From Acidimicrobiia bacterium (lineage in GTDB: Bacteria > Actinomycetota > Acidimicrobiia > Spongiisociales > Spongiisociaceae): DNA of 64,000 bases. Location: positions 3,240 to 67,239 of the forward strand of contig QIDH01000055.1 of the NCBI GenBank assembly GCA_003229305.1. Reading direction: 5' to 3'. The notes under the pieces are model-generated. The model saw nothing but the letters and a program-made list of their open reading frames with translations. It had not been told where the DNA came from and ran no database searches. Each line of letters starts with the position of its first letter. The stretch's first letter is position 1. The translations under genes were made by a program, and so were the position numbers. Shown here piece after piece: positions 46,712 through 64,000 of the stretch.

Positions 46712-48868
46712 ATGGATTGGGGAGACAACACCGAACTGCAGGACATCTTCAGAGCCGAGGTGGTCGAAATGGCCGGCCGGTTGTCGGGAGGTGCCGACAG
46801 CATCATCGACGATGTCTATTCAGCCTCGCCTACCAGCGATCTCGCCAGAGCCGCCCACACCATCAAAGGTTCAGGCAAGGTAATGGGTTTCGAGTACGCG
46901 GCAGACGCCGCGATCGACCTGGAGGGCGTGTGGAAGGCGATAGAGGCAGGAACCCTCAGGCCTACCGGTGCCCTTGGTGCACATCTCAAAGCCGTTGCCG
47001 AGGCCTTGCCGACTGCGGTGAACAGCGGCTCTGAAGCGGACAAAGCCGCACTCAGGGCCGCATCCGAAGGACTTAGGCGGCATCTGGAACACGATCTTCC
47101 CACCAGCCCGCCACCGAATGGCCCTCCTAGAAAGCCTGAGGTCGATTCGGCCAAAAAGCCCGGCCCACCAGATCCTCCAAAGCCTGCCGAACCGCCGTCC
47201 GCCCACCTGGCAGACAATCCGGAGCCCCAGGTCGACCTCGGTGGACTCCTGTCGTCTCTTCACGACCGAATGGCAGGGACGACCACCAGGGTCGAGGTAC
47301 AGCGCCTTTACCAGCTGATCAACCGGGCAGTCGAGGCAAGACTCGATGCGAGCGTCCTGAGCGCGAGCCTCACACCAGACGGAACCTTCGATTCCTCGGA
47401 TGAGAGCGCCACCGACGCCGTTGCTGCTTGGCGCATGGCGACCGAGGTGCTCGAATCTGCCCTCTTGGATGTCGAGCGGCAGGCTCTGGCGCTGTCGAGT
47501 GGCCGGCTCCGCGAGTTGACCAGCGCCTTCCCTCAGCTGCTGCGGTTCATCTCGAGGCGTACTGGCAAGGAGGTGCGATTCGAACTTGTTGGGGACAATC
47601 TCGACATCGATCGCCAGATCCTCGAACGTCTCCAGGAGCCACTCCGCCACCTTCTGGTCAACGCCGTCGACCATGGTATCGAGTCTGCCGAAGAACGGCT
47701 TGCCGCCGGAAAGACACCCACCGGCAACATCGCCTTGCGTGCAATGGTGAGCGCCCACCGGTTGCGGATCACAATCGAGGATGACGGGCGAGGAATCGAT
47801 TGGGCTGCTGTGGCCAAGGAGGGGTTGAAGCGAAATCTTCTCACGCCCAGCTCGACGCACGACTTTGCCGAACTCTCCGCGCTTCTGTACCAATCGGGGT
47901 TTTCGACTCACGACGTGGCCAACGATCTGAGTGGCGACGGACTCGGATTGTGGGCGGCTGCCCAGGCCGCCGAGCAACTAAACGGGACGCTATCGGTTGA
48001 ATCGAATCCTGGGCGCGGTACCACCATCACCTTGACGCTCCCTTCGTCCCTCGCCCTCCAAGACCTTCTGCTCGTCGAATCCGAAGGCCAGCGTTGGGGC
48101 ATTCCGGCCACTGCGGTGGAAGCCACGATGGATCTCGCCGGTTCCGGGATTGAGGACGAAGGCAACCAGCAGGCAGTGTTGTACAACGGCGAGAAGATCC
48201 CGGTCGCGAGCTTCGCTACTGTCGTCGGTTTGCGCGAAGCAGACGATGCCACCCAACTCGTCGTCCTGTCGACCAGGACAGGACCGGTTGGATTGACGGT
48301 GCCAGTCGTCATCGGTCGCCGTCAGGTTGCCGTCAAAGGCATAGGTCCGATGCTCGGTGGGGTGGAGCATCTGACAGGTGCGGCGATGCTGGGTGGCGGC
48401 CAGGTTGTGGTGATCGTCGAACCGAACCGCCTTGGTGAGTTGGTCAGGGTCAGGCCAACTGAACTCACCAGCCGCCCAAGGGTTCTTGTGGTCGATGATT
48501 CTGCGGGTGTGAGGCAGCTGGTCGCCGCTGCCCTATCCAGTAGTGGGTTCGAGGTGGTCTTGGCAGGCGAGGCCGACGCAGCCCTCGGACACCTCGAAAG
48601 GGAGCACTTCGACGCTCTGGTGGTCGATTACCTGATGCCAGGATCCGACGGTGTTGAACTGGTGCGCGATGTGCGAAGGACTCAATCCGCGCTAAGGATC
48701 GTCATGGTTTCGGGTGTTGCGACCGATGAAGACAAGGAGAGAGCATGGTCGGCGGGCGTAAATGCCTATCTCGACAAGTTCGATCTGCGGCAGGGCGTGC
48801 TCGTGCAGACGCTTCGTTCGCTGCTCAGACTTGCCGCCGAACCTCTCCCGACGTTGAAGGAGGTGTGA
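46712..48868 (+). CDS. CheA-like hybrid histidine kinase (Hpt-P3/P4-CheW-like-REC)
   Basis: Hpt AAHTIKGSGKVMGF, a Pro-rich linker, N-box HLLVNAVDHGIE, G1 DDGRGID, a CheW-like P5 region and a C-terminal receiver (VLVVDDSAG...DYLMPGSDG...K). Confidence 0.85.
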   Translation: MDWGDNTELQDIFRAEVVEMAGRLSGGADSIIDDVYSASPTSDLARAAHTIKGSGKVMGFEYAADAAIDLEGVWKAIEAGTLRPTGALGAHLKAVAEALPTAVNSGSEADKAALRAASEGLRRHLEHDLPTSPPPNGPPRKPEVDSAKKPGPPDPPKPAEPPSAHLADNPEPQVDLGGLLSSLHDRMAGTTTRVEVQRLYQLINRAVEARLDASVLSASLTPDGTFDSSDESATDAVAAWRMATEVLESALLDVERQALALSSGRLRELTSAFPQLLRFISRRTGKEVRFELVGDNLDIDRQILERLQEPLRHLLVNAVDHGIESAEERLAAGKTPTGNIALRAMVSAHRLRITIEDDGRGIDWAAVAKEGLKRNLLTPSSTHDFAELSALLYQSGFSTHDVANDLSGDGLGLWAAAQAAEQLNGTLSVESNPGRGTTITLTLPSSLALQDLLLVESEGQRWGIPATAVEATMDLAGSGIEDEGNQQAVLYNGEKIPVASFATVVGLREADDATQLVVLSTRTGPVGLTVPVVIGRRQVAVKGIGPMLGGVEHLTGAAMLGGGQVVVIVEPNRLGELVRVRPTELTSRPRVLVVDDSAGVRQLVAAALSSSGFEVVLAGEADAALGHLEREHFDALVVDYLMPGSDGVELVRDVRRTQSALRIVMVSGVATDEDKERAWSAGVNAYLDKFDLRQGVLVQTLRSLLRLAAEPLPTLKEV

Positions 48869-52685: not shown

Positions 52686-55600
52686 GTGCACGTTTTTGAT
52701 ACCGAGCCGGACCAGGGCGCCGTTCCAGCGGAATCGCCTCTGTTCGCTGACCTGAACCCTTCCCAGCGCGAGGCGGTGGCCGCCACCGAGGGACCGGTGT
52801 TGGTGGTGGCGGGGGCGGGGTCGGGCAAGACGAGGGTCCTGACCTATCGCATCGCCCATCTGGTTCGTGACCTGAACGTGCCTCCATCCGCGATTTTGGC
52901 GATCACCTTCACCAACAAGGCTGCGGACGAAATGAGGGAGAGGGTTGCGGCCCTGGTCGGCGGTGCAGTCCGCAACATGTGGGTTTCGACGTTTCACTCT
53001 GCTTGCGTTCGGATCCTGAGGCGCGAGGCGTCCAGGCTTGGCTATCGATCGTCCTTCACGATCTACGACGCCCAAGACTCGTTGCGAGCCATCACTCTGG
53101 CCATCAAGGATCTCAACCTCGACCCCAAGAAATTTCCGCCGCGCACGATCAGGGCCACGATCTCGGCGGCCAAGAACGAGCTGATCGACTACGAGACGTT
53201 CGGCGGCCAGAACAACGGCTACTACAACGAGAACGTGGCAGACGTGTACCGGCTGTACCAGCAGCGCATGGTCGAGGCCTCGGCGATGGACTTCGATGAC
53301 CTGCTGATGGTCACCGTCGAGCTGTTCGGCGCCTTCCCAGACGTGCTCGAGTACTACCAGGAACGATTCCGCTACGTCCTGGTCGACGAATATCAGGACA
53401 CCAATCGGGCGCAGTATCAGCTCGTCAAGATGTTGGCCGCCCAACACCGCAATCTGTGCGTTGTGGGTGACAGCGACCAGTGTCTCCCTGCCGACGTGCA
53501 GATCAGCACGCTTTCGGGTTCGGTCCGGATCGCCGACCTGGCGGAGGGTGACCGGGTGCTTGGAATCGGCGGCGACGGATCGGCGACTGAGGCAAGGGTG
53601 GCTGCGGTCAGGTCGTCTACCTATGCGGGCCGCCTGTACAGGGTGTGGGCCGGCGAGCGGACCATCGAGGGCACTCCCCACCACATCTTGCCGGCCCGCC
53701 TCGACAACCTTTCTGGGTCGCACATTGTGTACCTGATGTATAGATCTGACAAAGGATTTCGCATCGGCCTCACGCAATCCTTCCGTCAGAGCAATCGCGG
53801 GAAACGAGATATCGGGTTGAGGGTCCGCTCCAATCAGGAGCACGCTGACAAGGCATGGATTCTCAGGCTGTGCGACTCGCGGGCTGAGGCAAGTTTCTGG
53901 GAGGCGAAACTCTCAGCAGAGTACGGCCTTCCCACTACGTGTTTTCATTCGGTAGGGCGCGAGCTGACAATGGACCAACCCTGGATCGACCGGCTCTACG
54001 ACGAGCTCGATACGGTCTTGGCGGCAAAATGGCTCATGCACGACTTGGATTTGCACACTGAATACCCCCACCACCTTGCACAGAACGGGTATCGACGCCG
54101 AACGCTCAATTTGACGATGTTCTCAGATCGCCGGAACGCCGACATCGGCTATCACCGAGTCCAATGGTCCTCTAACCGTGCCGATGTGGCCGAACGCCTT
54201 CGCGAGGCAGGCTTTCCCATTCGGCCAGGCAAGTTGGACGGGACCTGGCGGTTGGAGACTTCACGCAAGAGCTACCCGGAGGCCCTTCAATATGCAAAGA
54301 GGGCCGCCGGGGCGGGCGGCCTGCAGATCGCCAGGCGGCTTTGCATCGACCGGATCATGTATCACTACACGCCGCTCTCCCATCTCCGGCCGGGGATGAC
54401 CATGCTCGAAGTCGTCGACGGTCTGGCAGTCGAATCAAGTGTCGACCGGGTCGAAATCGGCGACTGGCACGGCGAAGTATTCGACATCGAGGTGACGCCT
54501 CATCACACGTACGTGGCGAACGGGCTAGTCGTTCACAACAGCGTGTACAAATTTCGGGGCGCGGACATTCGCAACATTCTGCGCTTCGAAGAGGACTACG
54601 AGGACGCTCGGATCGTGGTGCTCGATCAGAACTATCGGTCGACCGAGACCATCCTCGACGCCGCCAACGCGGTCATCTCCAACAACGCGCAGCGCAAGCC
54701 CAAACGTCTCTGGACGGATCTCGGTGTCGGCGTGCCGATTGTGCGTTTCGAGGCGGAGGACGAACACGACGAGGCGGGATTCATCGCTGACACGCTTAAC
54801 CAGTTGGACGATCAGGGCGAGCCGGTGTCGCGCGCCGCGATTTTCTACCGGACCAACGCCCAGAGCCGAGTCGTAGAGGAGGTGATGGTTCGCTACGGCA
54901 TCCCATACAACGTCATAGGCAGCGTCAAATTCTACGAGCGGCGCGAGATCAAGGACGTGCTCGCCTATCTGCGGGTCATCGCCAACCCAGACGATCCGAT
55001 TTCCGTCAAGCGAGTGGTCAACGTTCCCAAGCGCGGGATCGGAGACACCTCGCTCGGCCATGTCGATCGGCACGCCGAAAATCAGGGCATCACCTTCTTT
55101 GAGGCCTTGCGGGCGGCAGACGACATTCCTGCCCTGAACAGTCGGGCAGCGAATGCAATCAGAGATTTTGTGACTGTGATCGATGAACTTGGCTTGGTTG
55201 CGGGTGAGTCTGGACCGACCGCCGCGGTTCAGGCCGTATATGACATGACCCAGTATCTCGCCAACTTCGAGATCGAAAAGACAATCGAGTCGCTCGGCAG
55301 GGCCGAGAATCTGCGTGAGCTGTTGTCAGGCACCGAAGAGTTCGAGAACTCGTCAGAAGGCTCGGTCGTCAACGGCGAAGAGTGGGACGAGATGGACGGT
55401 CGTCGCCGGCTCGAACTTTTCCTCGAATCGGTCAGCTTGGTGGCAGACATCGACGACATGGAAGATGATTCGCACGCCGTCACCCTCATGACGCTGCACA
55501 ACGCCAAAGGACTCGAATTCCCCAATGTGTTCATCGTCGGGATGGAGGACGGGATCTTCCCCCACCTGCGGTCCCTCGGAGATCCGGATGAACTGGAGGA

Positions 55601-55976
55601 GGAGCGCCGCCTGTGTTATGTCGGGTTGACCAGGGCCAAGCAGCGCCTGTTCCTGACCAGCGCCTTCTCGCGCATGCTGTTCGGATCGACCAACTACAAC
55701 CCCGCATCTCGGTTCCTGAAGGAGATCCCCCAGGGTCTGATGGAAGAAGCGGGCAAGAGAACTCGGCGGGCCTCGAAGGAGACAGCCGGCGGCGCGGTTG
55801 TGACCGTGGCCGGAGACGAGATTCAGCCGGGCGACCGAGTGCATCACGCCAAGCATGGCAAGGGCACTGTGCAGGAGGTGAACGGGATAGGTGACCGGGC
55901 TGAAGCCGTAGTCGATTTCGACGACGGAAATGCGCGGCGCCTACTTCTCGCCTGGGCCCCAATGCAGAAAACCTAA
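52686..55976 (+). CDS. pcrA: ATP-dependent DNA helicase PcrA/UvrD, intein-containing precursor (743-aa extein plus 353-aa intein)
   Basis: GTG start. Walker A AGAGSGKT, motif II VLVDEYQDTN, motif III split as VVGDSDQ | intein | SVYKFRGADIRN. Later UvrD motifs follow (QNYRS, TLHNAKGLEF, RRLCYVGLTRAK) and a C-terminal Tudor-like tail. Confidence 0.93.
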   Translation: MHVFDTEPDQGAVPAESPLFADLNPSQREAVAATEGPVLVVAGAGSGKTRVLTYRIAHLVRDLNVPPSAILAITFTNKAADEMRERVAALVGGAVRNMWVSTFHSACVRILRREASRLGYRSSFTIYDAQDSLRAITLAIKDLNLDPKKFPPRTIRATISAAKNELIDYETFGGQNNGYYNENVADVYRLYQQRMVEASAMDFDDLLMVTVELFGAFPDVLEYYQERFRYVLVDEYQDTNRAQYQLVKMLAAQHRNLCVVGDSDQCLPADVQISTLSGSVRIADLAEGDRVLGIGGDGSATEARVAAVRSSTYAGRLYRVWAGERTIEGTPHHILPARLDNLSGSHIVYLMYRSDKGFRIGLTQSFRQSNRGKRDIGLRVRSNQEHADKAWILRLCDSRAEASFWEAKLSAEYGLPTTCFHSVGRELTMDQPWIDRLYDELDTVLAAKWLMHDLDLHTEYPHHLAQNGYRRRTLNLTMFSDRRNADIGYHRVQWSSNRADVAERLREAGFPIRPGKLDGTWRLETSRKSYPEALQYAKRAAGAGGLQIARRLCIDRIMYHYTPLSHLRPGMTMLEVVDGLAVESSVDRVEIGDWHGEVFDIEVTPHHTYVANGLVVHNSVYKFRGADIRNILRFEEDYEDARIVVLDQNYRSTETILDAANAVISNNAQRKPKRLWTDLGVGVPIVRFEAEDEHDEAGFIADTLNQLDDQGEPVSRAAIFYRTNAQSRVVEEVMVRYGIPYNVIGSVKFYERREIKDVLAYLRVIANPDDPISVKRVVNVPKRGIGDTSLGHVDRHAENQGITFFEALRAADDIPALNSRAANAIRDFVTVIDELGLVAGESGPTAAVQAVYDMTQYLANFEIEKTIESLGRAENLRELLSGTEEFENSSEGSVVNGEEWDEMDGRRRLELFLESVSLVADIDDMEDDSHAVTLMTLHNAKGLEFPNVFIVGMEDGIFPHLRSLGDPDELEEERRLCYVGLTRAKQRLFLTSAFSRMLFGSTNYNPASRFLKEIPQGLMEEAGKRTRRASKETAGGAVVTVAGDEIQPGDRVHHAKHGKGTVQEVNGIGDRAEAVVDFDDGNARRLLLAWAPMQKT
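53481..54539 (+). mobile_element. Intein (353 aa) inserted in helicase motif III of pcrA/uvrD
   Basis: It begins with Cys (CLPADVQISTLSG, block A), has block B GTPHHILP, blocks F/G VFDIEVTPHHTYVANGLVVHN, and a +1 Ser. Removing it restores VVGDSDQSVYKFRGA. Length is 1059 nt, in frame. Confidence 0.9.
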
Positions 55977-56010
55977 ACCCTCGAACCCCTACGGCCGTTG
56001 TGGCGCGCAT

Positions 56011-56073
56011 GGAACCCTGGGTTGTACTCGGGGTTCCCACGGTCGCTATAGCGACCCTGGGAACCCACGGTTC
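56011..56073 (+). repeat. Double-hairpin intergenic repeat, copy A (forward)
   Basis: GGAACCCTGGGTTGTACTCGGGGTTCCCACGGTCGCTATAGCGACCCTGGGAACCCACGGTTC, starting 35 nt after the pcrA stop. Confidence 0.85.
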
Positions 56074-56139
56074 GCCAACCGGTCTGAGGCTGTTGCACGT
56101 TCGCTCCTAGGATCGAGCCATGCAGCGGACGGTTCGGAG

Positions 56140-57033
56140 ATGAGAGCAGCGGTCACAATCGGGCCTGGCGAGTTGGAAATCGTCGACACCGATCTAACGA
56201 AACGCAGGCCGGGCGAGGTGGTCGTAAGGGTGCAGCTTTCGATGCTCACCTCAACGGATGCGGCCTGGTTCCAAGCGCCGCGGGTCGATTTACTCCCTAT
56301 GGTCCAGGGTGGTCAGGCGGCGGGAATCTTGGACGCTGGAAGTCAGGGGTCGGGGAGCGGCCGCAATGTCGTGGTCTGGCCGTGGATGAACTGTCGCCGT
56401 TGTCGATCGTGTCGCTCAACGTCTAACGAAGTATGTGAGTCTCGCTCCCGACTCGGAATCGATCGGCCTGGCACGCTCTCCGAGATTGCGATCGTGCCGA
56501 GGGCCAACATCGTGACCGTCCCAGGCAGCGTCGGCCCAGCCGAGGCCCTTGCTGCGGTCGAGTATGCAGACGCATGGCGATTGCTCGCCGACGCGGGCAC
56601 AATTGGCCGACAGTCTCGGATACTGGTCGCCGGTAGCGGTCTACTCGCCGATCAGCTGGTCACCCTGGCCGAGCACATGCACGCCAGCGTGGCGAGGGGC
56701 GTGAGCATCCCCGGTTTGACCTTCACCCACATCTTCGCGATCAACGCGCCAATCGATGGACTCCTGCCAGCCTTGAAACCCGCAGGGACCGTGGTTGTGG
56801 CAGGCCACGGTTTGCCTGTAAGCGAAGTTGATCTGCGCTACCTGACTGCCGCCGAGCTGACGGTCAAGGGAAGCGGGCTTGCCAACACTGGGACCTGCGG
56901 AGATCTGTTGACGTGGATGGGTGAAACAGGTTTCGTGCCTGCGGTAGGTGACATCGTTTCGCTCGATGAGGTGGCAAAAGGTCTGGCCGACCTCGGAGGA
57001 TCGTTTAAGCCACTGCTCGTGTCGATCCGCTGA
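56140..57033 (+). CDS. Medium-chain dehydrogenase/reductase (zinc-ADH-like) family protein with degenerate catalytic zinc site
   Basis: ATG at 56140. GroES-like N-domain, structural-zinc Cys cluster CRRCRSCRSTSNEVC and Rossmann LVAGSGLLA. The GHE catalytic motif position reads QGGQ. Confidence 0.7.
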   Translation: MRAAVTIGPGELEIVDTDLTKRRPGEVVVRVQLSMLTSTDAAWFQAPRVDLLPMVQGGQAAGILDAGSQGSGSGRNVVVWPWMNCRRCRSCRSTSNEVCESRSRLGIDRPGTLSEIAIVPRANIVTVPGSVGPAEALAAVEYADAWRLLADAGTIGRQSRILVAGSGLLADQLVTLAEHMHASVARGVSIPGLTFTHIFAINAPIDGLLPALKPAGTVVVAGHGLPVSEVDLRYLTAAELTVKGSGLANTGTCGDLLTWMGETGFVPAVGDIVSLDEVAKGLADLGGSFKPLLVSIR

Positions 57034-57056
57034 ACGGCTGGTTGGTCCGCGACCTT

Positions 57057-57120
57057 CGAACTCGGGGCTCTGACGGCCGCTATAACGACCCAGGGAACCC
57101 TGGGTACAACCCTGGGTTGC
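57057..57120 (-). repeat. Double-hairpin intergenic repeat, copy B (reverse orientation)
   Basis: The reverse complement GCAACCCAGGGTTGTACCCAGGGTTCCCTGGGTCGTTATAGCGGCCGTCAGAGCCCCGAGTTC aligns along the full length with copies A and C. It starts 24 nt after the MDR gene stop. Confidence 0.85.
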
Positions 57121-57163
57121 AAACGCAGTACCGTTGAGGGTCACGACGGATGGAGTATTGGGG

Positions 57164-58276
57164 ATGTCGAACCTTCACAACCTGGCGGCTGTTGGCCAAT
57201 CGATCTGGATCGATTCGCTGTCGCGTTCCATCATCCAAAGCGGCCACTTGGCGGATCAACTCGAGGTGAACGCCGTGACCGGGGTCACATCCAACCCGAC
57301 GATCTTTGCCAAAGCGATGCTTTCAGGCAACAACTATGACGAGCAGCTGGCCGAGCTGGTGGGCCGAGACGCGTCAACGGACGAGATCTACACGGTCCTC
57401 GTCACCACAGACATTCAGGCCGCCTGCGATGTGATGCGATCGGTCTTCGATCGCACCGGCGGCAAGGACGGATTCGTGTCTGTCGAAGTCTCTCCTGAGC
57501 TTGCCCCAGACACGGACGGGACTGTCGCGGAAGCCCGTGATTGGGTCAAGCGGGTCGATCGGCCCAACCTGCTGATCAAAGTGCCGGCAACCGCCGAGGG
57601 AGTGCCGGCCGTCGAAGCACTGATCGGCGAGGGGATCTCGGTGAACGTCACATTGATCTTCTCCCTCGTTCGTTATGGCGAGGTGATGGAGGCGTATCTG
57701 AGCGGACTGGAGCGCTACGCCGACGCCGGCGGAGACGTTTCTACTGTCGCGTCCGTTGCATCGTTCTTTGTATCGAGGTTCGACTCGGAATTGGATGCGA
57801 GACTCGAGGCCCTAGGTACAGACGAGGCCCTGGCCTTGCGAGGGCTCGGGGCGGTGGCCAACGCCAGGGTCGCCTATCTCGATTTCCTCAAGGTTTTTGC
57901 CACGGCTCGCTACCAGAAGCTGGCCAAGCAGGGGGCCGCGGTTCAACAACCGCTGTGGGCCTCGACCAGCACCAAGAACCAGGCCTATTCGGACACTCTG
58001 TACGTCGACACCCTGGCCGGACCGACCACCGTCAACACCATGCCTGAGTCGACAATCGCCGCGTATCAGGACCATGGCCCTGCCTATCCAAAGGTCCTGG
58101 ACATAGAAGACATGACGGACGGCGCGCTGATTCTTGCCAGATTGGTCGATGTCGGCGTCGACTACGACGACGTCACCGACACACTCGAGCGAGAGGGCGT
58201 TGAGAAGTTCATTGTCTCGTTCCGCGAAATGGTCGCCGACATCGAACGCAAACGTAAGGCTCTTCTCGGGGGCTGA
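57164..58276 (+). CDS. tal: Transaldolase (long actinobacterial type)
   Basis: ATG at 57164. GQSIWIDSLSR, TSNPTIF, and the active-site Lys context LIKVPAT. Confidence 0.93.
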   Translation: MSNLHNLAAVGQSIWIDSLSRSIIQSGHLADQLEVNAVTGVTSNPTIFAKAMLSGNNYDEQLAELVGRDASTDEIYTVLVTTDIQAACDVMRSVFDRTGGKDGFVSVEVSPELAPDTDGTVAEARDWVKRVDRPNLLIKVPATAEGVPAVEALIGEGISVNVTLIFSLVRYGEVMEAYLSGLERYADAGGDVSTVASVASFFVSRFDSELDARLEALGTDEALALRGLGAVANARVAYLDFLKVFATARYQKLAKQGAAVQQPLWASTSTKNQAYSDTLYVDTLAGPTTVNTMPESTIAAYQDHGPAYPKVLDIEDMTDGALILARLVDVGVDYDDVTDTLEREGVEKFIVSFREMVADIERKRKALLGG

Positions 58277-58342
58277 CAGAACGGCTTGCACCTCACCCAA
58301 CGTGAGGCTCTACCTTGACGCCAGCCGATCAAGGAGAATGCA

Positions 58343-58828
58343 GTGCCATCAGACGCTTCCCGTCCAGAACCTGTCTCGCTAGGTGAGCACAACGGTTTCG
58401 ACATCTACCCGATGCCGATGTTCCTGACGCTGGCCGTCTCAGAGGTCGAGATGTCCGCCGCCTGGTACCAAAAGGCCCTCGGTTTCGGCACCATGTTCAC
58501 CATGCCAGGAGAAGGCCAGGCCCTCTCTATGGCTCACATCCGACTCGGAAAGTACCAGGACGTGTTGCTTGTGTCGGGTGAGGCAAGTGGCAGTCACGAG
58601 ACGTTCGCGACCCTGACGGTTCAGGATTCGAGTGCGATCGGCGACCTGGCCAGGGCGATCCCGAAGGTGGGGCGGTCCTCGATCGGGGAGACTGCGCAGA
58701 CTCCCTGGAATACGGTCGAGACGATGGTCACCGACCCTGACGGTTACTCCTTCGTGTTGAGTTCGCAAGGGCACGATGAGGAAATGAACAAGGCGATGGG
58801 CGAACTGTTCGACAGCGACGCCGGCTAG
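58343..58828 (+). CDS. VOC (glyoxalase/bleomycin-resistance) family protein
   Basis: GTG at 58343, 6 nt after AAGGAG. Paired beta-alpha-beta-beta-beta pattern with WYQKALGF and DPDGYSFVL. Confidence 0.7.
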
Positions 58829-58865
58829 CCGTTTTTTGGCCTGCCTATCACGCTACATTTGGGGT

Positions 58866-59261
58866 ATGCCACGTCGCATACTCATCGCCAAGCCGGGCCT
58901 CGACGGTCACGATCGAGGGGCCAAAGTCATTGCCAGGGCTCTGCGGGACGCCGGAAATGAGGTCATCTACTCCGGCCTGTTTCAGACACCTGAACAGATA
59001 GTCGAAACGGCGATTCAAGAAGATGTCGATGCAATCGGGCTCTCAGTGCTGTCTGGCGCCCACATGACGCTGTTTCCGAGAGTAGTTGAGTCACTACGTG
59101 AGCGGGATATCGATGACATTGTCGTGTTCGGAGGGGGCATCATTCCTGACGACGACATCGTGGCTTTGACCGAGGCAGGACTCGCAGCCATCTTCACCCC
59201 TGGGGCCCCACTGGGTGCCATCACCGAATGGGTTGATGAACACGTTCCAGATCGGGTGTAG
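58866..59261 (+). CDS. Stand-alone cobalamin (B12)-binding domain protein, acyl-CoA mutase small subunit-like (IcmB/MeaA C-terminal type)
   Basis: [34 protein letters not shown] contains the DxHxxG B12 motif. 131 aa from ATG 58866. Confidence 0.85.
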
Positions 59262-59321
59262 GCCCGGCGGCTGGTTCTACACTCTTTTCGGCGAATCGTC
59301 TCGGCGAAGGAATGTTGACCG

Positions 59322-60470
59322 GTGGATCTCTTTGAATACGAAGGCAAACAGTTTTTCGCGTCCTATGGCATCCCCGTCCCAGACGGCGAGGCGGCCGCGT
59401 CCGTAGAGGACGCCGTAGCCGCGGCCGAGCGGATCGGATTCCCGGTTGTGGTGAAGGCGCAGGTCCACACCGGCGGACGCGGCAAGGCGGGCGGAATCAA
59501 GCTTGCGTCTTCCGAGGACGAGGTCCGCCAGTACGCGTCTGACATTCTCGGCATGGACATCAAAGGCCACACCGTCAACATCGTCTGGATCGAGGAGGCG
59601 TCCGAGATAGCCGAGGAGTATTACGCCAGCTTCACGCTGGACCGCTCGAAGAAGCGGCACCTTGGCATGCTCAGTGCCGAAGGGGGAGTGGAGATCGAAA
59701 CAGTCGCAGATGAGAATCCTGATGCGATCGCCAAGATCTGGATCGACCCGATTGTTGGGCTAACCGATGATCAAACCCGTGGATGGGTGGCCGCTGCGAA
59801 CCTCAACCCGGCTGCGACAGAGGGGGCCGTGGAACTCCTCCAGAAGCTCTACACCGCCTACGACCAGGGGGATGCTGATCTCGTCGAGATCAACCCCCTG
59901 ATTCTCACTCCGAACGGCCAAGTGCACGCTTTAGATTCCAAGGTAAGCCTCGACTCCAACTCGGTATTCCGACATCCAAACTATGAGCGATACGACGCCA
60001 CCCAGCCGAGGGACGAGCGGGAGACCGCCGCCCATGAACAGGGCCTCCAATATGTGGGGCTCGACGGTTCGGTGGGGGTAATCGCCAACGGAGCAGGTTT
60101 GGCGATGAGCACCGTGGACGTGGTCAGCCAGGCCGGCGGGAACGCTGCGAACTTTCTTGATATTGGGGGCGGGGCCAACGCAGAAGTCATGGCAGGGGCA
60201 CTCCAAGTCATCAACAACGATCCCGAAGTGAAATCGATCTTCATCAACATTTTCGGCGGCATCACCAGGGGTGAAGAAGTGGCCAAAGGGATCGTCGGCG
60301 CCCTCGAACAGGTCGACATCGATTCTCCCATCGTCATCAGGCTCGACGGCACGAACGCTGATGAGGGTCGGGCGATCCTGTCGCCCCACCTTTCTGAAAT
60401 GTTGATGGTGGAAGACACGATGCTGAGTGCGGCCGCCAAGGCGGTCGAGTTGGCAGGGGGAGCAGCCTGA
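59322..60470 (+). CDS. sucC: Succinate--CoA ligase (ADP-forming) subunit beta
   Basis: GTG start. MDLFEYEGKQFFASYGIPVP, ATP-grasp domain, C-terminal ligase-CoA domain. Confidence 0.95.
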   Translation: MDLFEYEGKQFFASYGIPVPDGEAAASVEDAVAAAERIGFPVVVKAQVHTGGRGKAGGIKLASSEDEVRQYASDILGMDIKGHTVNIVWIEEASEIAEEYYASFTLDRSKKRHLGMLSAEGGVEIETVADENPDAIAKIWIDPIVGLTDDQTRGWVAAANLNPAATEGAVELLQKLYTAYDQGDADLVEINPLILTPNGQVHALDSKVSLDSNSVFRHPNYERYDATQPRDERETAAHEQGLQYVGLDGSVGVIANGAGLAMSTVDVVSQAGGNAANFLDIGGGANAEVMAGALQVINNDPEVKSIFINIFGGITRGEEVAKGIVGALEQVDIDSPIVIRLDGTNADEGRAILSPHLSEMLMVEDTMLSAAAKAVELAGGAA

Positions 60471-61354
60471 TGAGCATCTTCTTGGACGAAAATACCAAGG
60501 TCGTCTACCAGGGTCTGACCGGTTCGGCCGGGCGTTTCTACGGCCTTCGCAACCGTGACTACGGGACGCAGGTCGTCGCTGGTACCCATCCGAAGAAGGT
60601 GGGCGAGGAGGTCGACGGCATCCCGATCTTCGCGAACGTCGGTGATGCGGTGGAGGCAACCGGCGCCACTGCGAGCTGCCTGTTCATTCCCGCGCCGTTT
60701 GTAAAGGACGCCGTCATGGAGGCGGCCGACGGCGGGGTGAGCCTTATCGTTGTGATCACCGAAGGAGTTCCGGCTCATGATGAGGCGTGGTTCTTCAACA
60801 AACTTGCCGAGGACTACCCGGATGTCCGCCTGCTCGGGCCCAACTGCCCAGGCTTGATCAGTCCAGGCAAGGCCAACGTCGGGATCACCGCAGGCCACAT
60901 CGCCAAAGACGGCGGTCCGGTCGGGATTGTCAGCCGGTCTGGAACGCTGACCTATCAGGCTCTCTACGAGCTCAAACAGCAGGACATCGGGGTCACGACG
61001 TGTGTCGGGATTGGGGGCGATCCGGTGCCTGGCACGTCGTTCATCGATTGTTTGGCGGCCTTCGAGGCTGACCCGGAAACCAAGGCGGTCATGATGATCG
61101 GCGAGATCGGGGGCTCGGCGGAAGAGGAAGCAGCCGAGTTCATCCGTGACCACATGACCAAGCCGATCTCAGCCTACGTTGCAGGCGTGACTGCTCCTCC
61201 CGGTAAGAAGATGGGCCACGCTGGAGCGATCGTGTCGGGCGGAAAGGGTACGGCGGCCGCCAAGATGGAGGCACTCGAAGCGGCCGGAGTCAAGGTCGGC
61301 CAGAACCCAACCGAAGCCGGCGAGCTCATGGTCGACCTGGTTCGCCACCTCTGA
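60470..61354 (+). CDS. sucD: Succinate--CoA ligase subunit alpha
   Basis: Overlapping TGATG junction with sucC. GLTGSAGRF, SRSGTLTYQ and the phosphohistidine loop MGHAGAIVSG. Confidence 0.96.
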   Translation: MSIFLDENTKVVYQGLTGSAGRFYGLRNRDYGTQVVAGTHPKKVGEEVDGIPIFANVGDAVEATGATASCLFIPAPFVKDAVMEAADGGVSLIVVITEGVPAHDEAWFFNKLAEDYPDVRLLGPNCPGLISPGKANVGITAGHIAKDGGPVGIVSRSGTLTYQALYELKQQDIGVTTCVGIGGDPVPGTSFIDCLAAFEADPETKAVMMIGEIGGSAEEEAAEFIRDHMTKPISAYVAGVTAPPGKKMGHAGAIVSGGKGTAAAKMEALEAAGVKVGQNPTEAGELMVDLVRHL

Positions 61355-61362
61355 GCATTTCT

Positions 61363-61425
61363 GGAACCCTGGGCTGTACCCAGGGTTCCCTGGGTCGCCA
61401 GAGCGACCCTGAGCGCCCGAGTTCG
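61363..61425 (+). repeat. Double-hairpin intergenic repeat, copy C (forward)
   Basis: GGAACCCTGGGCTGTACCCAGGGTTCCCTGGGTCGCCAGAGCGACCCTGAGCGCCCGAGTTCG, starting 9 nt after the sucD stop. Confidence 0.85.
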
Positions 61426-61467
61426 ACAAGTTGCTCCTCGTGGCAACCCTATGTGTGCTGAACGTTC

Positions 61468-61499
61468 GGCTCTGGCGCGGGTATACCCGCGCCAGAGCC
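61468..61499. repeat. Perfect 32-nt palindrome GGCTCTGGCGCGGGTA|TACCCGCGCCAGAGCC
   Basis: Read directly. It lies 25 nt upstream of the folD ATG, with no flanking T tract. Confidence 0.9.
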
Positions 61500-61523
61500 T
61501 AAGGTTGCCGACCTGGAGGGCTG

Positions 61524-62375
61524 ATGGCGGCGAAAGTACTTGATGGCAAGGTGGTGGCGGCGGCGGTTCTCGACGAGACTCGGGAGCGGGTGGAGGCCCT
61601 TGATCAACGGGGGATAGTTCCGGCCCTGGCCACTGTGCTAGTCGGTGCTGACCCGGCATCGCAGAGCTACGTCGGTTCGAAGCGGCGACGGGCCGGTGAG
61701 GTGGGTATCCGCTCTGTGCATCAGGAAATAGGTGCAGACGCTTCGCAGGATCAGGTCCACGACACCCTGCATCGGCTGAACCGCGATCCAGAGATCGACG
61801 GAATCCTGCTCCAGCTTCCGCTGCCCGAAGGGCTGGATGGTGAGCGGGCGACTCTCGAGATCGATCCCGCCAAGGACGTGGATGGGCTTCATCCGACCAA
61901 CCTGGGGCTGATCGTGCTCGACCGGCCAGGACTGGTACCAAACACACCGGCCGGCTGCCTACGAATTTTGGACTACTACGACATCCCGATTCGAGGTGCC
62001 AACGTTGTGGTGGTCGGGCGATCGTTTCTGGTCGGTAGACCTCTCGCTCTGCTTCTGGCCGCCAGGGGAGCGGACGCCACGGTCACCATTACTCATTCTC
62101 GGACCAAGGACCTCGCTGGGATTGCTCGCCGAGCCGATATCGTGGTAGCTGCGATAGGGCGGCCCGGCATGATCACACCAGAGTTCATCCGACCGGGCGC
62201 CACTGTGATCGACGTGGGGATCAATCGGGTGGACGGCAAACTGGTTGGCGACGTCGATCACGACTCGGTTTCGGAAATAGCCGGAGCTATCACCCCCGTC
62301 CCAGGCGGGGTTGGACCGATGACCGTCGCCATGCTGATGCGCAACACCGCCATCGCTGCCGAAATGCGCCACTGA
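61524..62375 (+). CDS. folD: Bifunctional methylenetetrahydrofolate dehydrogenase (NADP+)/methenyl-THF cyclohydrolase
   Basis: SQSYVGSKRR (active-site Lys region), ILLQLPLP, VVGRSFLVGRP, TPVPGGVGPMT. Confidence 0.95.
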   Translation: MAAKVLDGKVVAAAVLDETRERVEALDQRGIVPALATVLVGADPASQSYVGSKRRRAGEVGIRSVHQEIGADASQDQVHDTLHRLNRDPEIDGILLQLPLPEGLDGERATLEIDPAKDVDGLHPTNLGLIVLDRPGLVPNTPAGCLRILDYYDIPIRGANVVVVGRSFLVGRPLALLLAARGADATVTITHSRTKDLAGIARRADIVVAAIGRPGMITPEFIRPGATVIDVGINRVDGKLVGDVDHDSVSEIAGAITPVPGGVGPMTVAMLMRNTAIAAEMRH

Positions 62376-62587
62376 GTTCCCGTCACCTGTTCCTTGCCTG
62401 CCGGGACAAAGGGTGGAGCAAGTGTCCTGTCCGTCTGATCAAGTCGTGAATTCAGCAGGTTTGACAGCGGCTCGCTGCATTCTGCATCCTCGACGTCGGG
62501 GTATTGCTATTCATCGACGCTCAACTATTTCTGTGTCAAAGGTCTAGAGGCCCTATGCGCTGTCCTGGTCGCGGGTGTTGACTATCT

Positions 62588-63163
62588 GTGATTCGACGAA
62601 GGGGGATCATCGTGCGTCGAACAGGACGCAAACTCTTGGGTGTAGCTGTTGCTTTCGCTATGGCAATCGGAGCGCCCGCTAGCGCCGCCATGTCTTCAGG
62701 AGACCTCGCCACTGAGGCGCCGGAGCCGATGGAGGTCACGTTCAACGCTGTCCGGATCGCCAATGTGGACGACTCTGATCTGCCGGTGTCGCTGCGGCCC
62801 GCCTCGGTGGAGGTGATACCGGGTCGTGTCGAATTGCTTGACAGCAAAGATGCTGACCACGTAGCGGCCGCTGCGACGTCATATGGCTACACTTTCGGCC
62901 GCAAAGTCAAGAACGGGTTTGGCACGACGCTGTACATCGTCTACGAACGGATCGAGTGGACTGGGACGACAATCAATACCCACTCATGCTGGGGCAAATC
63001 TGGCCTGGCCACCTATAGAAGCTGCAGCAAGTGGACCGGTTCTTCAACATTTGGAGCAAGCTGGATCTTCTCGGTTGGGCCCTGGGGTTGGCCACAATAT
63101 GACCCATGGACGAGCGGTCGCGTGTATAGCAACGGCGCGATCACGATCACGTTCACGTACTAG
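62588..63163 (+). CDS. Secreted hypothetical protein (191 aa), Trp/Gly/Thr-rich C-terminal half
   Basis: Signal-like N-terminus (RKLLGVAVAFAMAIGAPASAA). No recognisable family. Sits in a stretch that looks lower in GC. Confidence 0.5.
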   Translation: MIRRRGIIVRRTGRKLLGVAVAFAMAIGAPASAAMSSGDLATEAPEPMEVTFNAVRIANVDDSDLPVSLRPASVEVIPGRVELLDSKDADHVAAAATSYGYTFGRKVKNGFGTTLYIVYERIEWTGTTINTHSCWGKSGLATYRSCSKWTGSSTFGASWIFSVGPWGWPQYDPWTSGRVYSNGAITITFTY

Positions 63164-63166
63164 ATC

Positions 63167-63430
63167 GTGTTTGAGGATTTGAGACACGCCACGGACAAGG
63201 CGCTGCTTGCTCGCTTCAGCGTGGCCCGGAGCTTGCGTCTCATTGAGTGGGGCCTCTTCGGACTGGCGATTGTGTCGGTATCACTTTGGCCGGTGCCAGC
63301 GGTAGTTATTCTCGCCGTCGCCTGGATGATCGTCCTGGCACATCGGATCGACGGGGACCGGGTGCTCGCTGCAATGCTGTTGAGCCTTGCGTTCGCCGCG
63401 CTATACATCTTCGTATTGACGCCCGTATGA
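63167..63430 (+). CDS. Small two/three-TM membrane protein, hypothetical
   Basis: The GTG start is 3 nt after the preceding stop. Hydrophobic helices follow (LFGLAIVSVSLWPVPAVVILAVAWMIVLA...). Confidence 0.4.
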   Translation: MFEDLRHATDKALLARFSVARSLRLIEWGLFGLAIVSVSLWPVPAVVILAVAWMIVLAHRIDGDRVLAAMLLSLAFAALYIFVLTPV

Positions 63431-63708
63431 GCCGAGGGCCCCGGAGGATGGTGGAGTTGGCACTCCCTGATTCTCCGGACCCCGGCCCCGTGTCCGGCAC
63501 GATCCGGTCTCGACAGATCAGCCAGCTTCGCGGGGCCACAGCCAATCGAGTCAGGAGGTGTTTCGTGTGGAGGCGATTCAGGCTGTTTTGAGACATTGAG
63601 GAAACGCGTAGGAATAGGCTATATGTTCTGATCGCTGCGGCCGTCGCCGTTCCGCAAGCGAATCGCCCTGCAACGCGATGCAGCTCGAACAGTTGTTGCC
63701 TTCGGCCT

Positions 63709-63770
63709 AACTCGGGGCGCTTGTAGTCGCTGTAGCGACGACAGGAACCCAGGGTTGTACCCTGGATTCT
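63709..63770 (-). repeat. Double-hairpin intergenic repeat, copy D (reverse orientation)
   Basis: AACTCGGGGCGCTTGTAGTCGCTGTAGCGACGACAGGAACCCAGGGTTGTACCCTGGATTCT aligns with copy B. It abuts the stop codon of the minus-strand gene at 63770. Confidence 0.85.
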
Positions 63771-64000
63771 TAGGCCGGGCGGCCGCCTTCCAACTCGTCC
63801 TGGAGGACTTGCAGTTCGCTCCATTTCTCATCGGCCGCCAGCCTGGCCTGTTGTGGCCAGGTTCCAGGGTCGTGCGCCCGGAAGGGCTCTCCGCCGGCCA
63901 TCAAGAGTTCCTTGATGCGGTCTGGCTGAGTCTCGGCGAGTTCAGTGAAGGTGTAGATGCCACCCATGTTGAGCAGCTCGGCGATCTTTGGGCCTACACC
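63770..64000 (-). CDS. C-terminal fragment of a helix-hairpin-helix domain protein (gene continues beyond window)
   Basis: The reading frame is open to the window end: ...GPKIAELLNMGGIYTFTELAETQPDRIKELL...PGTWPQQARLAADEKW. This is an HhH-type motif followed by a conserved-looking tail. Confidence 0.5.
   Translation of the reverse strand, partial: GVGPKIAELLNMGGIYTFTELAETQPDRIKELLMAGGEPFRAHDPGTWPQQARLAADEKWSELQVLQDELEGGRPA

Follow-up and report, generated by a model that had tools for sequence, protein, structure and literature searches.

What places short double-hairpin repeats directly behind genes, and does a dedicated enzyme stand behind them? The question is raised by a 64,000-nucleotide stretch (the window) of the Acidimicrobiia metagenome-assembled genome (MAG) GCA_003229305.1, taken from the forward strand of contig QIDH01000055.1 (positions 3,240 to 67,239), in which an annotation made from the sequence alone, here called the original prediction, had pointed out four copies of an unnamed element. 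We refer to this element as family A. Our reading, to which we assign a probability of roughly 0.6, is that family A consists of lineage-restricted, non-autonomous elements of about 63 nt which resemble repetitive extragenic palindromic (REP) sequences and their doublets (REPINs) and which are tied to a nuclease with an AbiEi-Vsr fold. The arrangement would be similar to that of REPINs and their REP-associated tyrosine transposases (RAYTs), with an enzyme of a different class. This reading starts from direct observations, namely the repeat family and its placement, the bracketing of the nuclease gene, the presence or absence of the resulting cassette, whose empty site holds one box, and the recurrence of the layout across the order.

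A lineage-restricted family of double-hairpin repeats

The source MAG (G000; 1.95 Mb in 112 contigs, 61% G+C, 72% complete), in which the window lies on contig C7, was compared with the only congeneric genome, an uncultured Acidimicrobiia MAG of a sister species (G001; assembly 78% complete). All four copies described for the window are present and share a conserved block of about 63 nt running from GAACCC to GTTCG. Their predicted bounds were accurate to within 1-3 nt and are refined here as follows:

56012-56074, plus strand: family-A copy 1, located about 35 nt past the stop codon of pcrA (55974-55976), with both hairpins and the box-like tail; fold z = -4.2
57057-57119, minus strand: family-A copy 2, degenerate, with its orientation opposite to that of the ADH_N/MDR gene; fold z about -2.1 for both strands
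61364-61425, plus strand: family-A copy 3, 9 nt after the sucD stop codon (61352-61354); fold z = -5.9
63707-63769, minus strand: family-A copy 4, directly after the TAA stop codon (63770-63772, minus strand) of a small membrane/HhH-like gene; fold z = -4.7

The alignment bore out the original consensus and both of its hairpins. Hairpin 1 (hp1) consists of GAACCCWGGGT, a 3-nt loop and ACCCWGGGTTC, and hairpin 2 (hp2) of GTCGC-TATA-GCGAC with a variable 4-nt stretch on each side, between hp1 and the tail. The unit contains versions of a 13-bp palindromic box, GAACCCWGGGTTC, which is split and duplicated as the two arms of hp1 and appears a third time, degenerate, in the 3' tail GGAACCCCGAGTTCG (variant ...GAGAACG). 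In many copies a longer hp2 is possible, pairing GGGTTCC(n4)GTCGC with GCGAC(n4)GGAACCC, and competes with hp1. The RNA folds of copies 1, 3 and 4 are far better than those of shuffled sequences (z values as listed), copy 2 is decayed, and in copy 4 hp1 is flipped and has the loop TACAA.

An iterated nhmmer search of the source genome revealed 33 loci with 34 full units, among them three double units arranged head to head and one copy truncated at the end of a contig; the full units occupy 31 loci. Many further copies thus exist besides those of the window, and they are not the ends of a known insertion sequence (IS). Most copies are singlets; the doublets comprise three head-to-head pairs (two on C8, one on C24) and two tail-to-tail pairs (C79 and C89). 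On the 88-kb contig nhmmer found no further copy, in agreement with the earlier statement that the first 56 kb of the window are free of the element, and the four units within 7.8 kb form a cluster (0.14 expected, Poisson P about 1e-5).

A pattern of 21 specified bases matched 44 times in the source genome and 39 times in its congener, the copy number of family A being about equal in the two. Since the reversed control matched the source genome 0 times, the four copies of the window are not due to chance. Neither the pattern nor its reversed control matched in 59 other relatives from the same family and order. Furthermore, an exact scan of one genome per species in 185,579 species returned the pattern in G001 only, plus one palindromic site in Nocardiopsis which looks like a chance match, and viral contigs contained no family-A copies. 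An Rfam scan of the region gave no relevant match (one microRNA match elsewhere was at chance level, E = 0.54).

A nuclease gene bracketed by the repeats

A linked RAYT or transposase had been proposed as something to look for. No PF01797 (Y1_Tnp/RAYT) gene was found in the 72%-complete source genome, but a gene of another kind is flanked by the repeats instead. This single gene, which encodes an AbiEi winged helix-turn-helix (wHTH) region followed by DUF559 (Vsr fold), lies outside the window and downstream of dapB (C2:46928-47854, 308 aa). Pfam assigned AbiEi_4 and DUF559 (31.4 bits, cut-off 20.6), with MTES_1575 below the curated cut-off. A plus-strand copy of family A (46813-46879) and a minus-strand copy (47911-47977) bracket the gene with their tails inward and their box ends outward, an arrangement with a chance probability of about 5e-4. 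The gene stands by itself in the intergenic region that separates dapB from a convergent gene, and is not part of an intron or intein. In three unrelated metagenomes, its nearest homologues (55-59% identity) each have the same layout of gene and family-A repeats, and two of the three lie in the same Rhomboid / Peptidase_M16 / DapB neighbourhood. Many homologues are found alone on contigs of 1-1.7 kb, as expected if assemblies break at the flanking repeats.

The dapB locus of the sister species matches that of the source genome on both sides and lacks the 1159-bp cassette, the two matches overlapping by 5 bp (TGGGT). The empty site in G001 reads ...TAG ATCCG GAACCCTGGGTTC GCCTGG... and holds one intact, perfect palindrome, whereas the filled site in G000 reads ...TAG TTTCC GAACCCTGGGT / cassette / TGGGTTC GCCAGA.... 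Therefore, the whole cassette sits inside one copy of the box. DapB is 86.6% identical between G000 and G001, 71-75% between G000 and two cassette-bearing metagenomic contigs, and 73-75% between G001 and the same contigs, which places G001 as sister to G000 and the contigs as more distant. Given these identities, the cassette would most simply be ancestral at the dapB site and have been lost precisely in G001. The alternative is repeated insertion of the cassette into the same box; either way the event is site-specific. A scan of metagenomes with DapB returned only distant relatives (25-41% identity and one 58% fragment), none of which had repeats or boxes.

A nuclease paralogue in G001 (37% identical) is bracketed by two inverted copies of a different palindromic repeat, family B (consensus CGAACTTTCGGCTCTAGCGCGGGTATACCCGCGCTAGAGCCTAAGGAACG), which has 14 copies in the source genome and often adjoins family A in mosaics similar to bacterial interspersed mosaic elements (BIMEs).

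The same locus bears on a reversed causality, in which the AbiEi-Vsr-fold gene would be a free-standing, homing-type selfish gene that inserted at a box within pre-existing repeats and does not mobilise them. An empty site made of one intact palindromic box, with the junctions inside that box, speaks for such a gene, and both the match of the C-terminal domain to a homing endonuclease fold (see below) and the gene-less tail-to-tail pairs at C79 and C89 fit as well. We nevertheless consider this scenario improbable. Being single-copy, syntenic and inherited vertically across 55-58% protein divergence, the gene does not resemble an active homing gene with about 30 available targets; moreover, it is flanked by complete units and not by the halves of one unit, and the origin and spread of 34 repeats would be left unexplained.

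Predicted fold of the partner protein

An AlphaFold2 model of the nuclease, built from a 48-sequence alignment, reached a mean predicted local distance difference test score (pLDDT) of 91.8 and was compared with the PDB using Foldseek. The N-terminal region up to about residue 200 matches the AbiEi antitoxin 6Y8Q (E = 1.3e-6), while the last 100 or so residues match the catalytic domain of I-Bth0305I (3R3P; E = 7e-4, template modelling (TM) score 0.79); this C-terminal region also matches the DUF559 protein NGO0050 (3HRL). Across the 48 homologues, D236, E247, D249 and D263 are invariant, and at least 90% share H254. The modelled partner gene product thus has a Vsr-like fold with conserved acidic and His residues. 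A sequence search of the nuclease against PDB chains gave only chance matches to antibodies. A survey of PD-(D/E)XK enzymes groups Vsr, DUF559 and 3R3P/3HRL together, and I-Bth0305I is a homodimeric Vsr-fold enzyme whose specificity is centred on a 14-bp pseudopalindrome at the cut (PMC3239194). Such a target fits the 13-bp palindromic box as the target here.

The N-terminal part of the protein, with about 200 aa matching the AbiEi antitoxin fold, suggests another role for the boxes, which could be operators or binding sites of the AbiEi-like domain that serve autoregulation and, as dispersed sites, for instance nucleoid organisation or self-marking; the repeats would then owe their spread to slippage or ordinary recombination and not to the nuclease. 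AbiEi regulates its own expression by binding to inverted repeats in its promoter. In favour of such a role, about 60-90 nt (typically about 70 nt) separate the inner end of the upstream repeat from the start codon at more than half of the loci with flanking repeats; yet the repeats stand at both gene ends and not on the promoter side alone, and family-A copies avoid promoter regions genome-wide. Together with the invariant nuclease residues and the gain or loss of the whole cassette precisely at the box, this makes a purely regulatory role very unlikely.

Recurrence of the layout across the order

Homologues of the nuclease were present in 53 of 101 relatives, with one to seven per genome. 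At 21 of the 30 homologue loci that were retrieved, inverted repeats flank the gene (local-alignment score 34-74, versus 15-29 in displaced control windows). The flanking arms mostly carry a ACCCNGGGT-type box, which lies at most 260 nt from both gene ends in 19 of 33 loci, whereas about 0.3% per flank would be expected for the narrowest pattern scored. A second group of homologues, to which the G001 paralogue with family B belongs, has a CCTNAGG box. In all five genomes tested, from four genera, the flanking arm belongs to a family dispersed in that genome only (6-76 copies). The exact 13-mer reached 6-37 copies in 22 of the 101 genomes (reversed control, 0-1), and 20 of these 22 carry the nuclease gene (Fisher P = 2.6e-5, a value that overstates the association as the relatives are not independent).

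Two further genera were considered for cassette presence and absence. The case in genus g21 (G061 versus G042) is real but uninformative on the box: the position of the cassette in G061, G070 and G079 is taken up in G042 by an unrelated structured repeat in two tandem copies (GTTGTGCAACCACGTACCYGTGAGGYAC.TATCTGCACAA; C1, about 760878-761086, L157). The comparison in genus g13 was uninformative, with a rearranged left flank.

These data allow a wider proposal, which we put forward tentatively and at somewhat less than even odds. AbiEi-wHTH/Vsr-fold (DUF559) endonucleases would be the resident partners of box-carrying hairpin repeats throughout the Acidimicrobiia, recognising a double-stranded 13-bp palindrome (GAACCCNGGGTTC or variants), cutting it at its centre and driving copying or precise excision, and would thereby amount to a second route to the REPIN-RAYT lifestyle, by an unrelated mechanism. 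As part of our reading of family A itself, the nuclease would bind the box or the hairpin as a dimer and cut at or near the CCC-W-GGG centre of the box. Cutting and host repair would then copy or excise the ends of the cassette and its gene-less derivatives, in analogy to RAYTs and REPINs. The copies would be retained chiefly a short distance behind stop codons, at sites that tolerate them, and would be transcribed as hairpins of 3' untranslated regions; as a secondary effect, these hairpins probably block read-through or 3' exonucleases.

A 19-nt mini-hairpin, GGCAACTCTTCGAGTTGCC, interrupts an hp1 arm precisely at its CCC/W/GGG centre in three copies, one of which is the right end of the cassette, and is also found in the hp2 loop of a fourth copy. 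The same variant occurs in G001 as well (C202, C63, C558 and C633), and so does the variant of the cassette right end. The position of the mini-hairpin is consistent with breaks at this site, which it may mark.

Placement and persistence at gene ends

All family-A copies of the source genome are intergenic according to our own gene calls (dicodon caller; 1895 genes, 89% coding), which are imperfect and missed, for example, an Lrp-like gene ending at the C21:9494 copy. About 12 loci are convergent and about 16 tandem, and one divergent region holds two copies, against a background of 235 convergent, 832 tandem and 266 divergent intergenic regions; per kb, the density of copies is about 24-fold higher in convergent than in divergent intergenic DNA. 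In 19 cases the nearest stop codon is on the side of the hp1 end and in 5 on that of the tail (binomial P = 0.003, with classification by eye), and eight copies start within about 7 nt of a stop. The description of the element as REP/MITE-like (MITE, miniature inverted-repeat transposable element), unnamed and 3' of genes therefore holds for the 34 units. One of the four window copies points the other way.

Within the window, copies 1, 3 and 4 follow pcrA, sucD and the small membrane/HhH-like gene in sense orientation, with the hp1 end about 35, 9 and 0 nt after the stop, as had been stated for every copy. Copy 2 departs from this statement: its tail, and not its start, lies 23 nt past the ADH_N/MDR stop, and its hp1 end is about 14 nt before the transaldolase start. 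The gene names were checked with Pfam (PcrA/UvrD C-terminus, ADH_N, transaldolase, SucD, FolD). The position after stop codons and the orientation bias may reflect tolerated sites, a benefit at the RNA level, or both.

Between G000 and G001, whose coding DNA is 79-87% identical, at least eight family-A sites are shared, including copy 1, the C8:52799 double unit, C80, C21:9494, C21:10415, C10:823 and the C20/C27 junction. Copy 1 is identical at 61 of 63 positions, but the intergenic sequence to its left and right does not align; the bounds of the element are therefore fixed and sharp (GAACCC...GGTTCG). Shared copies in general are 75-97% identical (those other than copy 1, about 75-85%) between unalignable flanks. 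In the C8 double unit (52799-52902; G001 C264, L010 1479-1578) hp1 is flipped between the species, with loop TTGTA versus TACAA and swapped W positions, which indicates inversion of the palindrome at the DNA level. Turnover is seen as well, with solo sites filled only in G000 (C21:7644, C10:13132, C2:7818) or only in G001 (C446, C362).

Pairing statistics on 50 distinct copies showed that hp1 is 94% paired and nearly invariant, its central W-W position forming a pair in 33 of the 50. In hp2, the 5-bp core is conserved, while the 4-bp extension is paired in only about half of the copies, with some double changes. Covariation, which had been proposed as a check, scored above all 500 shuffles but was small. 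The hairpins are real, and support for RNA structure as the selected trait is modest. A terminal stem of 5' CGAAC and 3' GTTCG was rejected on inspection of the alignment, not on pair counts, because the common tail variant GAGAACG breaks the pairing without a compensating change. A scan of the region for canonical terminators and promoters gave no match of either kind at the elements; terminator-like sites were missing at all four copies, and their regional count was not above that of shuffles; with a GC-rich stem-loop followed directly by a U-tract as the criterion, no copy has a U-tract or canonical terminator tail.

These results have to be weighed against a role in the host, in which the repeats would be selected 3'-end elements (U-less terminators, RNase barriers, or elements that stall ribosomes near stops) and their link to the nuclease incidental. 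Placement speaks both for and against such a role: the bias toward gene 3' ends is strong, the orientation is skewed 19 to 5 and several copies lie 0-9 nt from a stop, but five copies are inverted and three are in promoter-side regions. Likewise, the hairpins are stable and orthologous copies are conserved like coding DNA between decayed flanks, yet the pairing is mostly invariant and not covarying, as at the central W-W position, and U-tracts or canonical terminators are missing at every copy. Host selection would also leave unexplained why the nuclease is bracketed in four lineages and why this recurs with other repeat families. We regard it as unlikely.

Findings that weigh against a nuclease-linked element

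Several findings count against the tie between family A and the nuclease. The nuclease gene is syntenic and vertically inherited, and therefore is not itself hopping. G001 has about as many family-A copies as G000, yet no gene flanked by family A in its 78%-complete assembly; conversely, G000 has 14 family-B copies, yet no gene flanked by family B. Moreover, the head-to-head doubles do not match a simple internal deletion of the cassette, although the two tail-to-tail pairs do. No target-site duplications were readable at the five solo presence/absence sites, because the intergenic DNA of the only two species is too diverged for solo-copy junctions and precise empty sites to be read. Exceptions to the inverted-repeat flanking come mostly from genus g7 of the same family, whose homologues (L036, L039-L042, L048, L049) lack flanking repeats and whose genomes have at most two perfect boxes each; these homologues may be domesticated or orphaned. 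Finally, the association could be reversed, with the gene homing into repeats, or the boxes could be autoregulatory operators, as discussed above.

Further features of the window and of the repeat families

In addition to the four copies, the window and the two genomes contain the following features:

55985-56011, minus strand: weak candidate for a degenerate mirror half of the element, immediately upstream of copy 1 (nhmmer minus-strand match of 21 bits, contig positions 59224-59275)
61461-61505, plus strand: family-B copy, found as an inverted repeat (consensus as given above), 35 nt downstream of copy 3, with which it forms a BIME-like mosaic
C2:7895, C2:21070, C6:17475, C10:13233, C11:36855, C13:31875, C19:14440 and 14565, and others: family-B copies of the source genome
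C2:47966, C27:31457, C9:8199 and C18:19150: sites of the mini-hairpin GGCAACTCTTCGAGTTGCC in the source genome

Copies 1 and 2 (56012-57119) bracket the ADH_N/MDR gene with their tails inward, which is the geometry of the nuclease cassette; this could be coincidence or a cassette with other cargo. The tail-to-tail pairs C79:779-1032 and C89:387-574 of the source genome have spacers of only 120 and 54 nt, and look like cassettes without a gene, that is, MITE/REPIN-like derivatives. The source contigs C20 (1-27) and C27 (1-49) end inside or next to a family-A copy that is intact on contig C417 of G001 (L023), where it lies just upstream of a tRNA-like gene. Family-A repeats are thus a cause of assembly breaks.

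Comparison with known systems

In bacterial genomes, few non-coding features are as common as REP-type repeats. To our knowledge, the RAYT tyrosine transposase is their only known partner enzyme, and we know of no partner for many repeat families, including all of those in Actinomycetota, nor of an assigned function for the very abundant DUF559 family. A DUF559 nuclease may fill this partner role. If so, DUF559 proteins would gain a function, the origin of repeats in a whole bacterial class would be explained, and a new module for site-specific DNA cleavage, with a simple 13-bp palindrome as its target, would become available. For annotation, the repeats explain why contigs of MAGs from this group break at these elements and why lone DUF559 genes are found on contigs of about 1 kb. 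In a literature search that covered papers available without subscription, no paper joined DUF559 with RAYT or with AbiEi, and none joined Acidimicrobiia with "repetitive extragenic palindromic"; by title and abstract, the papers on DUF559 and palindromic repeats and on Vsr and REPINs concerned unrelated matters.

Family A shares with the Correia/NEMIS or ERIC type of MITE that it is small, structured, intergenic and dispersed, and has imperfect terminal inverted similarity (CGAACCC... / ...GAGTTCG). Unlike MITEs, it has no parent IS with a DDE transposase and no demonstrable target-site duplication for solo units; the only repeat-bounded gene is not of a known transposase family, and a 5-bp junction overlap is seen at the cassette only.

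In Escherichia coli, BIME/REP sequences stabilise mRNA 3' ends, and REPs close to stop codons affect translation. Family A resembles the E. coli BIMEs in its placement right after stops, in its two-family mosaics (family A beside family B) and in its stable hairpins without U-tracts. It differs from them in having no sequence relation and in its host, a member of the class Acidimicrobiia in the Actinomycetota.

The closest structural relative of the predicted catalytic domain, I-Bth0305I (3R3P, TM 0.79), is likewise a multidomain protein. Its target is a 14-bp pseudopalindrome, and here a 13-bp palindrome forms the empty site of the cassette. Unlike I-Bth0305I, the G000 gene lies outside any intron or intein, is chromosomal, syntenic and single-copy, carries an AbiEi-like N-terminal module and is accompanied by dozens of gene-less repeats.

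REP and REPIN elements with RAYT (Y1) transposases have been described in Proteobacteria (PMC2817692, PMC3116915, PMC3337134), and a conserved tetranucleotide, GTAG or CGTC, marks one palindrome end in REPs (PMC3733652). The family-A consensus, nCGAACCCTGGGTnGTACCC...GTCGCTATAGCGAC...CCCCGAGTTCG, has neither tetranucleotide at its stem ends, and its unit is longer (63 nt, two hairpins) and arranged around a 13-bp double-strand palindrome instead of a single-strand hairpin with a 5' tag. The flanked gene also differs from the REPIN-RAYT system, being an AbiEi-wHTH plus Vsr-fold PD-(D/E)xK-type nuclease in a genome in which no Y1_Tnp/RAYT gene was found. Family A is nevertheless similar to REPs and REPINs in being short, palindromic and extragenic, in having tens of copies as singlets and inverted doublets, and in its long persistence at orthologous sites. 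Furthermore, as in the REPIN-RAYT system, a single-copy, vertically inherited gene lies between two inverted copies of a repeat family that belongs to its own genome, and paralogues differ in the family with which they are paired, here A and B.

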